A stretch of DNA of 4,026 nt. Source: a virus. Taxonomy: Duplodnaviria > Heunggongvirae > Uroviricota > Caudoviricetes. Below are positions 3,027 to 3,315 of the stretch, one piece after another. The DNA lies in IMG/VR virus record IMGVR_UViG_2778261447_000018, positions 1 to 4,026 of that record. One strand, 5' to 3'. Position 1 is the stretch's first letter; every line of letters starts with the position of its first letter. A program made the translations under genes and the position numbers. The notes beneath the pieces were generated by a model. That model worked only from the letters and a program-made list of their open reading frames with translations, was not told the DNA's origin and made no database searches.

Positions 3027-3075
3027 TTTTATTTTTACCCCCTCGTTTAAAAAGTTTTGAGTTGTGCCTCCCCTT

Positions 3076-3302
3076 GTCTACCTTATCTACCTTAGTGGCC
3101 CTCATGCCAGTAATGGCGCGGCTTTCAGCGGGGTAGAGTGCTTTTATCCACTATCTACCCCGTGTCTACCTCCCTGTCTGATTCTGGTAAAATCAGGTAG
3201 AGAGGGTAGATAGTGGGTAGACAGTAAAAAAAAGGCTATCTACCTAACTTAATGCACTGAATTAAATGTATTTTTCTTTACTCAGGTAGACAGGGTAGAC
3301 AG
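3076..3302. repeat. iteron array, about 11 copies of a 7-bp RTCTACC / GGTAGAY motif in both orientations; putative replication origin
   Basis: Read directly. Copies written as xTCTACC on plus lie near 3077, 3086, 3154, 3165 and 3239. Copies written as GGTAGAx on plus lie near 3133, 3197, 3206, 3217, 3286 and 3295. Tandem copies are spaced 9-11 bp, about one helical turn. Two clusters are mutually inverted and there is an adjacent AT-rich stretch. Coordinates are approximate (+/-2 bp). Confidence 0.6.
3246..3285. other. AT-rich tract flanked by iterons; candidate DNA-unwinding element
   Basis: The tract taacttaatgcactgaattaaatgtatttttctttactca is strongly AT-rich and lies between iteron copies at about 3239 and 3286. 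An A8 run sits just upstream at about 3227-3234. Coordinates approximate. Confidence 0.35.
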
Positions 3303-3315
3303 CAATTACAAAAAA

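Follow-up and report, generated by a model that had tools for sequence, protein, structure and literature searches.

Short repeats crowded into the gap behind a replication gene raise the question of what they are for. We address it for a stretch of 4,026 nucleotides (nt), the window hereafter, that spans positions 1 to 4,026 of IMG/VR virus record IMGVR_UViG_2778261447_000018. In this window the initiator gene pri-rep ends in a 289-bp intergenic region that holds an array of copies of the hexamer TCTACC in both orientations. Judged by its sequence and gene content, the window is part of a phage-inducible chromosomal island (PICI) of Escherichia coli of the EcCICFT073 type; EcCICFT073, an island in strain CFT073, is the prototype Gram-negative PICI. 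We read positions 3070–3305 as the replication origin of this island, with a probability of roughly 90%. The origin is real, was correctly read from the letters in an earlier note on this DNA, and is already known, having been described and deletion-tested in 2018. Because the EcCICFT073 origin was published then, the window adds only another allele.

The repeat array

The heptamer RTCTACC occurs nine times in the 4,026-bp window against 0.45 copies expected, and its TCTACC core 11 times against 0.94 expected (two of the 11 cores read CTCTACC). The earlier note had proposed a comparison with shuffled sequence as a check; 0 of 200 shuffles reached nine copies of the heptamer and 0 of 200 reached 11 of the core. 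All 11 TCTACC/GGTAGA cores fall within 3077–3299 (223 bp), and there are none elsewhere in the window. Read on the plus strand, TCTACC starts at 3077, 3086, 3154, 3165 and 3239, and GGTAGA at 3132, 3196, 3205, 3216, 3285 and 3294. Over all 11 copies, the extended consensus is C-T-N-TCTACC-Y. With positions numbered in gene direction, starting at the stop codon, and orientation marked by arrowheads, the layout of the cores is 17> 26> 72< 95> 106> 115> 146< 157< 179> 225< 234<.

This anatomy upholds what the earlier note had described: about 11 copies in both orientations within about 230 bp, tandem copies about one helical turn apart, two clusters inverted around a 25-bp spacer, an AT-rich tract of about 40 bp with an adjacent A8 run, and an array that begins about 12 nt past the stop codon. 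Start-to-start spacing within clusters is 9 or 11 bp, and the clusters at 3154–3170 and 3196–3221 are mutually inverted around the 25-nt gap 3171–3195. The AT-rich tract at 3245–3284 (77.5% AT) is flanked by the iteron pair at 3285–3299 on one side and the iteron at 3239–3244, followed by the triple at 3196–3221, on the other. From the pri-rep stop codon (3316–3318, minus strand) to the nearest core end at 3299 there are 16 nt; with the extended motif the distance is about 12 nt. Only the extent has to be trimmed. The note had flagged all of 3027–3315; the origin occupies about 3070–3305 of that interval, and 3027–3069 is a leader and ribosome-binding site with no iteron. The features are as follows, in gene direction after the first two entries.

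3027–3315: intergenic region, 289 bp, which holds the repeat array.
3070–3305, minus strand: probable replication origin proper, 11 iterons in two inverted modules, inside the published Δori interval and about 97% identical to the EcCICFT073 origin.
3285–3299, minus strand: proximal iteron pair, cores 3294–3299 and 3285–3290, 9 bp apart, both TCTACC in gene direction, 17 and 26 nt after the stop codon.
3245–3284, unstranded: AT-rich tract of 40 nt, 77.5% AT, a candidate DNA-unwinding element.
3239–3244, plus strand: single inverted iteron that closes the AT-rich tract.
3226–3233, unstranded: A8 run (T8 in gene direction), in a 17-nt gap (71% AT) ahead of the triple cluster.
3196–3221, minus strand: triple iteron cluster, cores 3216–3221, 3205–3210 and 3196–3201, spaced 11 and 9 bp.
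3171–3195, unstranded: central 25-nt spacer, the dyad axis of the two inverted modules (inverted repeats I1, I4 and I7).
3154–3170, plus strand: iteron pair of the distal module, cores 3154–3159 and 3165–3170, 11 bp apart.
3132–3137, minus strand: single iteron of the distal module, CTCTACC.
3092–3131, unstranded: spacer of the distal module, 40 nt, 40% AT, which contains GCCAGTAATGGCGCGGCTTTCAG (3106–3128).
3077–3091, plus strand: distal iteron pair, cores 3077–3082 and 3086–3091, 9 bp apart, the inverted partner of the proximal pair (inverted repeat I2, 22-nt arms, 86% complementary).
3027–3069, minus strand: leader and ribosome-binding site of the next open reading frame (ORF), free of iterons and outside the origin core; its block AAACTTTTTAAACGAGGGGGTAAAAATAAAA is conserved in E. 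coli alleles.

The published origin of EcCICFT073

Matches to the window occur in 1692 of 5426 E. coli genomes, with at least 80% of the window covered in 182 of them, and the best match is strain LH50-c (96.7%). The segment 1383285–1387658 of CFT073 is 92% identical to the window over about 4 kb and sits in an island of about 10 kb that is bounded by a tyrosine integrase, with a gene order identical to that of the window. A megablast of the window against the phage collection gave no match; the element is chromosomal, and its matches are E. coli chromosomes alone. The window itself carries a cos site and unidirectional genes, and the integrase and helix–turn–helix genes lie beyond it in the syntenic CFT073 and LH50-c islands. 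The intergenic region is about 97% identical among the window, CFT073 and LH50-c. The EcCICFT073 replicon is thus the same type of element at the same locus, with the 11 cores all in matching positions but for a one-base difference in A-run length (A8 in the window, A7 in CFT073); the two differ by few point changes.

Gram-negative PICIs have their origin directly 3′ of the gene for the initiator (Fillol-Salom et al. 2018, ISME J, PMC6092414). Three plasmids were tested there (pri-ori, pri-Δori and Δpri-ori), and an arabinose promoter controlled pri-rep: a temperature-sensitive plasmid with EcCICFT073 pri-rep and ori was maintained at 44 °C, the Δrep plasmid was not maintained and the Δori plasmid gave significantly fewer colonies (PMC6092414, Fig. 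2b). For this near-identical region, therefore, both pri-rep and the intergenic region have been shown to be needed for efficient plasmid maintenance (PMC6092414). We mapped the published cloning primers (PMC6092414 supplement) onto CFT073 and the window. The insert of pri-ori ends at the equivalent of window position 3002 and that of pri-Δori at the equivalent of 3312; the published deletion hence corresponds to 3002–3311 and takes in the whole flagged interval. The plasmid replication assay that the earlier note had suggested has accordingly been published already for the near-identical EcCICFT073 region, where Δori lowers maintenance (PMC6092414). Its central idea, an origin served by its own initiator in the manner of P4 alpha, is supported; the array adjoins the Pri-Rep gene, and plasmid maintenance dropped when the orthologous EcCICFT073 region was deleted from a pri-ori plasmid (PMC6092414). 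Four allelic variants of Pri-Rep are described in E. coli PICIs, and the iteron sequences of several are given in Fig. 2a (PMC6092414).

Conservation of the array with its initiator

A scan of one genome per species found relatives in Shigella, Rosenbergiella, Pantoea and Xenorhabdus. The C-terminal part of Pri-Rep is 95% identical to that of the window in Shigella and 60–68% identical in the other three genera. Conservation in homologous elements had been named as a further check, and it was found: in other genera the motif keeps its sequence, order, orientation and spacing, and what lies between the copies drifts. In Shigella, Rosenbergiella and most Xenorhabdus, TCTACC follows the stop codon at near-identical positions, in the same order and orientation, with the sequence between copies diverged; the positions of the proximal pair (17 and 26 nt after the stop codon) are retained in nearly all relatives. 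When 11 diverse origins were compared with the window, the 66 core columns were 94% identical and the other 223 columns 59%. Divergent E. coli origin alleles, which are 72–78% identical over the region, have 9–11 TCTACC cores at the same positions, and their Pri-Rep C-terminal domains are 84–98% identical to that of CFT073. The 300 nt past the stop codon hold a median of 11 copies across 80 IMG/VR loci, against 18 copies in 217 kb elsewhere. The proximal AT gap is 71–89% AT in most relatives. The array also stays with Pri-Rep though the downstream genes differ, with a capsid gene of lambda-E type or HK97 type and an 85-amino-acid (aa) ORF present or absent.

Some relatives have reduced or rearranged versions. 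Two Pantoea loci have the proximal half only; in Pantoea stewartii (L005, L006) and in L092 this is a six-copy module that resembles the P4 ori. Xenorhabdus L011 and L014 have a shortened array of 6–7 copies, and in L088–L091 (IMG/VR) the whole array is inverted relative to pri-rep. We take Providencia L012 to be a truncated or rearranged gene and set it aside as uninformative; its match extends only to residue 195, and no array follows the apparent stop codon.

The spacers hold elements of their own. GCCAGTAATGGCGCGGCTTTCAG (3106–3128; CTGAAAGCCGCGCCATTACTGGC in gene direction) is kept across E. coli origin alleles despite the divergence of the other spacers. Blocks of the CTGAAAGCC type occur in other genera, some of them clear palindromes, such as CTGAAACCCTTGCGCCACAAGGGATTCAG in L088, and L100–L102 have a copy of a GCCAGTAATGGCGCGGCTTTCAG-like element in both modules. 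The GCCAGTAATGGCGCGGCTTTCAG element may serve as a hairpin or as a site for priming or for a host factor; inspection of the GC-rich distal spacer by eye for a conserved hairpin gave no consistent structure, with palindromes in L088, L090 and Rosenbergiella and none in E. coli or Xenorhabdus.

The initiator and a proposed mechanism

The full-length EcCICFT073 Pri-Rep has 584 aa, with D5_N, DUF5906 (P-loop of superfamily 3 (SF3) helicases) and Pox_D5 regions (Pfam). It also matches PHROG families labelled DNA primase; the N terminus lies outside the window, which holds two features of the gene.

3316–4026, minus strand: 3′ part of pri-rep, the last 236 codons and the stop codon 3316–3318, covering part of the SF3 helicase domain and the C-terminal domain (Pfam DUF5906, Pox_D5); it runs off the window at 4026.
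3343–3609, minus strand: predicted winged-helix domain with which Pri-Rep would bind the origin; it corresponds to residues 488–576 of the 584-aa EcCICFT073 protein and has a Pfam Pox_D5 match (E 4e-6).

Compared with EcCICFT073, the helicase segment encoded in the window is 99% and the C-terminal segment 94% identical. In the full-length EcCICFT073 protein, residues 194–432 match 7OLA, the cryo-electron microscopy structure of SaPI5 PriRep (E 3.8e-15), and residues 488–576 match PDB 1KA8, the origin-binding winged helix of P4 alpha (E 1.1e-6, phmmer). Together with the SF3 P-loop in DUF5906, this C-terminal match bears out the earlier suspicion of a DNA-binding tail attached to an SF3 helicase. 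EcCICFT073 Pri-Rep and P4 alpha are 41% identical over 434 aa, starting from alpha residue 324. Among E. coli alleles, the N-terminal domain is the most variable part of Pri-Rep (48–99% identity), and Xenorhabdus relatives have a Toprim_3 domain, as in P4 alpha; the regions concerned are L001 16966–17418 (residues 1–151 of EcCICFT073 Pri-Rep) and L007 23–430.

We propose that, after induction, Pri-Rep, an SF3 helicase fused to N-terminal and C-terminal domains, would recognise the TCTACC iterons through its C-terminal winged helix and assemble on the two inverted iteron modules. It would then melt the 40-nt AT-rich tract at 3245–3284 and load itself as the replicative helicase, after which the island would amplify and be packaged from its own cos site. 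In this scheme we infer that the iterons are the Pri-Rep binding sites and that the AT tract at 3245–3284 is the melting site; by analogy with the Rep of Staphylococcus aureus pathogenicity islands (SaPIs) and with P4 alpha, loading is probably independent of a separate loader. An origin of this kind allows the island to over-replicate once a helper phage induces it, and this amplification underlies the very high transfer frequency.

Comparison with SaPI, P4 and plasmid origins

SaPIs carry six to twelve iterons of 5–6 nt directly after rep, where they flank an AT-rich region in opposed orientation; the C-terminal winged helix of Rep recognises these iterons, and Rep binds and melts the origin independently of ATP and is a self-loading helicase (PMC9371898). 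The window has the same architecture, with iterons downstream of the initiator gene that flank an AT-rich region, and its initiator is likewise an SF3 helicase with a C-terminal winged helix, the helicase region of which matches 7OLA. The relationship is nonetheless distant and covers the helicase part only, the iteron words and host range differ, and SaPIs are transcribed divergently (PMC6092414), whereas the window is unidirectional.

P4 resembles the window in the layout of its ori. The GenBank record of P4 annotates type I repeats TGTTCACC, ori and crr, and agrees with the P4 iteron named in the earlier note. When flipped, the six type I repeats of the P4 ori read 20> 30> 71< 95> 106> 116>, with a gap of 83% AT, and the proximal half of the window's origin, 17> 26> 72< 95> 106> 115> with a gap of 78% AT, is nearly superimposable on them. 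Both consist of a pair, an AT-rich gap of 35–40 nt, one inverted copy and a triple. Alpha and Pri-Rep share homology in their D5_N, SF3 helicase and origin-binding domains, and crr lies just downstream of the initiator gene, as the window origin does. In P4, however, ori and crr are about 4.5 kb apart, whereas the window has a single compound array next to the gene with two modules head to head; a scan of the window alone found no second, crr-like TCTACC element apart from the array. Alpha has a recognisable Toprim domain and E. coli Pri-Rep has none that is recognisable. The words differ as well: TGTTCACC is absent from the window and TCTACC from P4, in line with the earlier view that the motif is unlike the P4 iteron and may mark a distinct specificity group. 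Because its word differs from that of P4, the TCTACC group is a different specificity group.

We also considered, and rejected, a classical iteron plasmid origin (Rep_3/RepA, pi or TrfA, with direct iterons of 17–22 bp and DnaA boxes). The window has a core of 6 bp in both orientations and an SF3 initiator, and its lone DnaA-box-like sequence is not conserved. That sequence, TTATCCACT at 3144–3152, matches the DnaA-box consensus at 8 of 9 positions and is present in the window, CFT073 and LH50-c; it is absent from other E. coli origin alleles and probably incidental.

The iteron word and the binding domain

Some relatives keep the layout and change the word. In vB_KppS-Ant (LR881103; L020 3253–3552), a 16.5-kb PICI-like record of an induced prophage deposited as a phage, the same 11-copy layout lies 3′ of a full-length Pri-Rep homologue that is 41% identical to that of CFT073. 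The iteron word differs from that of the window and is TGTTCACC, the P4 type I repeat. The copies read 34> 44> 85< 108> 119> 127> 158< 170< 203> 245< 253<, with the same order and orientation and with most spacings matching. The C-terminal domain is nearer to that of P4 alpha, 52% identical to the P4 domain as compared with 32–34% for TCTACC users (32% for CFT073).

A third word, ATCCCTAC, occupies the layout in the 300 nt past the stop codon of L100–L102 (IMG/VR). Their close relatives L098 and L099 use TCTACC, and the C-terminal domains of L098 and L100 are 78% identical. At each of six alignment columns, this CCCTAC group has one residue throughout, and no TCTACC user has that residue. Three of the columns belong to a short C-terminal segment with the sequence TRSINGRAQTN in the CCCTAC group and the pattern TR-x-x-K/R-G-x-x-QTN wherever TCTACC is used; of the others, one is close to the beginning of the aligned domain, and two are in a C-terminal tail extension that is absent from most TCTACC users. 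A word that changes on every copy together with a changed binding-domain homologue is what an initiator–iteron pair predicts, and therefore argues against a purely structural or operator role.

From these comparisons we tentatively suggest, at a little under even odds, that the PICI origin is a head-to-head fusion of two P4-ori-type modules (ori and a crr-like one) with a fixed layout and at least three interchangeable words, TCTACC, ATCCCTAC and TGTTCACC, and that the TCTACC/CCCTAC switch tracks the three positions in the short C-terminal segment. Each module may consist of an iteron pair, a gap of 35–46 nt, one inverted copy, about 23 nt, and a pair or triple; the distal half of the window's origin is the same module inverted, with a pair in place of the triple. 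If the suggestion is true, the single-module Pantoea origins and the inverted origins of L088–L091 are explained as rearrangements of one unit, and the family forms a natural series for how a winged-helix initiator picks its iteron. The comparison of the P4 ori and PICI origin layouts is made at the level of pattern, and we did not find it stated in the literature text searched. These comparative points (the layout shared with P4, the three words and the candidate specificity residues) are incremental; they could guide binding and specificity-swap work on SF3 self-loading initiators.

Weighing the origin against other explanations

Several observations weigh against the origin and the mechanism proposed for it. 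Our literature search turned up no data on binding, footprints, melting or replication intermediates, either for the window sequence or for EcCICFT073 Pri-Rep, and no later paper on Pri-Rep binding or footprinting at the origin of an E. coli PICI came up in a full-text search. Colony numbers with the published Δori were only ‘significantly reduced’, so residual maintenance is possible (PMC6092414). The N-terminal 150 residues of E. coli Pri-Rep have no Pfam domain, and primase activity is putative. Finally, in L098–L102 the proximal spacer is not AT-rich, with a TATATATATTT run after the single inverted iteron, and the melting site may therefore lie elsewhere.

The best-surviving alternative, although we consider it very improbable, is that the repeats are mainly an operator array through which Pri-Rep or another island protein controls read-through into ssb, perC and the capsid genes, with replication starting elsewhere. 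Initiators of iteron plasmids often autoregulate through their repeats, and the unidirectional transcription unit does include the array, which separates pri-rep from the next ORF. The array has no terminator-like or convincing promoter-like site on the coding strand, which suits control of read-through; a promoter and terminator scan of 1800–3450 found nothing above shuffle expectation inside the origin. Against this, the published Δori phenotype is a maintenance defect observed with pri-rep on an arabinose promoter (PMC6092414), the repeats are arranged as in the mapped P4 ori, Pri-Rep keeps its array even in islands with other downstream genes, and the word changes together with the Pri-Rep C-terminal domain. 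A secondary regulatory role alongside origin function may still exist.

It is more improbable again that the signal is a structured RNA or a DNA cruciform rather than a set of protein-binding repeats. The single strand folds better than shuffles (−40.5 kcal/mol, z −4.65), an excess that follows from the nested inverted iterons, and 3139–3236 gives weak miRNA-like Rfam matches. These matches fall far below the gathering scores (best 28.5 against 59.2 bits); they are eukaryotic miRNA hairpin models fitted to a palindrome, artefacts of the inverted iterons. Most of the conservation lies in the hexamer word and not in compensatory pairs, some relatives retain one module only, and relatives swap every copy on both arms to a new word, which indicates a motif recognised by protein. 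Repeats that are short, clustered and in both orientations are likewise a common feature of parS-like sites and of some pac or cosB sites, but a partition (centromere-like) or packaging role is just as improbable, given that CFT073 and LH50-c have no annotated ParA or ParB gene anywhere in the island and that a lambda-like cos lies elsewhere in the window, at about 60–125.

Other features of the window

All convincing genes of the window are on the minus strand. Besides pri-rep, they are as follows.

2769–3026, minus strand: 85-aa ORF of unassigned function (phrog_1231), directly after the origin and followed by ssb.
2362–2772, minus strand: ssb (Pfam SSB).
2079–2351, minus strand: perC.
1632–1838, minus strand: 68-aa ORF.
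577–1632, minus strand: lambda-E-type major capsid gene.
230–565, minus strand: lambda-D-type decoration gene.

A 49-aa ORF on the plus strand (3064–3213), within the array, was set aside as a by-product of the repeats. The 10-nt sequence AATGGCGCGG occurs as an exact direct repeat at 2973–2982, in the 85-aa ORF, and at 3112–3121, in the GC-rich spacer of the origin, which may be chance.

The cos site lies at 60–125 on the minus strand, with a cosN (88–101) one mismatch from that of lambda. It follows the lambda left end GGGCGGCGACCTCGCGGGTTTTCGCTATTTATGA, with few mismatches, before it diverges in the cosB part. In EcCICFT073, cos function has been shown experimentally, the published cos sites are without a lambda-type cosB and two functional cos sites are reported; the divergence in the cosB part of the window agrees with this lack. 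A second cosN-like 14-mer, GGGCGGCGACCCCG, at 3915–3928 on the minus strand, is also one mismatch from lambda cosN. It lies within pri-rep, where it encodes the conserved helicase motif ITGGDPVEIN, and may be either a second cos site of the EcCICFT073 type or a coding coincidence.

Outside the origin, about 350 bp that are present in CFT073 and LH50-c (L002 12222–12570) are missing from the window at about 212–220. The missing segment is most of a 414-nt gene annotated as a phage head-tail connector protein. The junction falls in the 9-bp repeat TGCCATCGT, which is found at both ends of the missing segment and therefore suggests a microhomology-mediated deletion.

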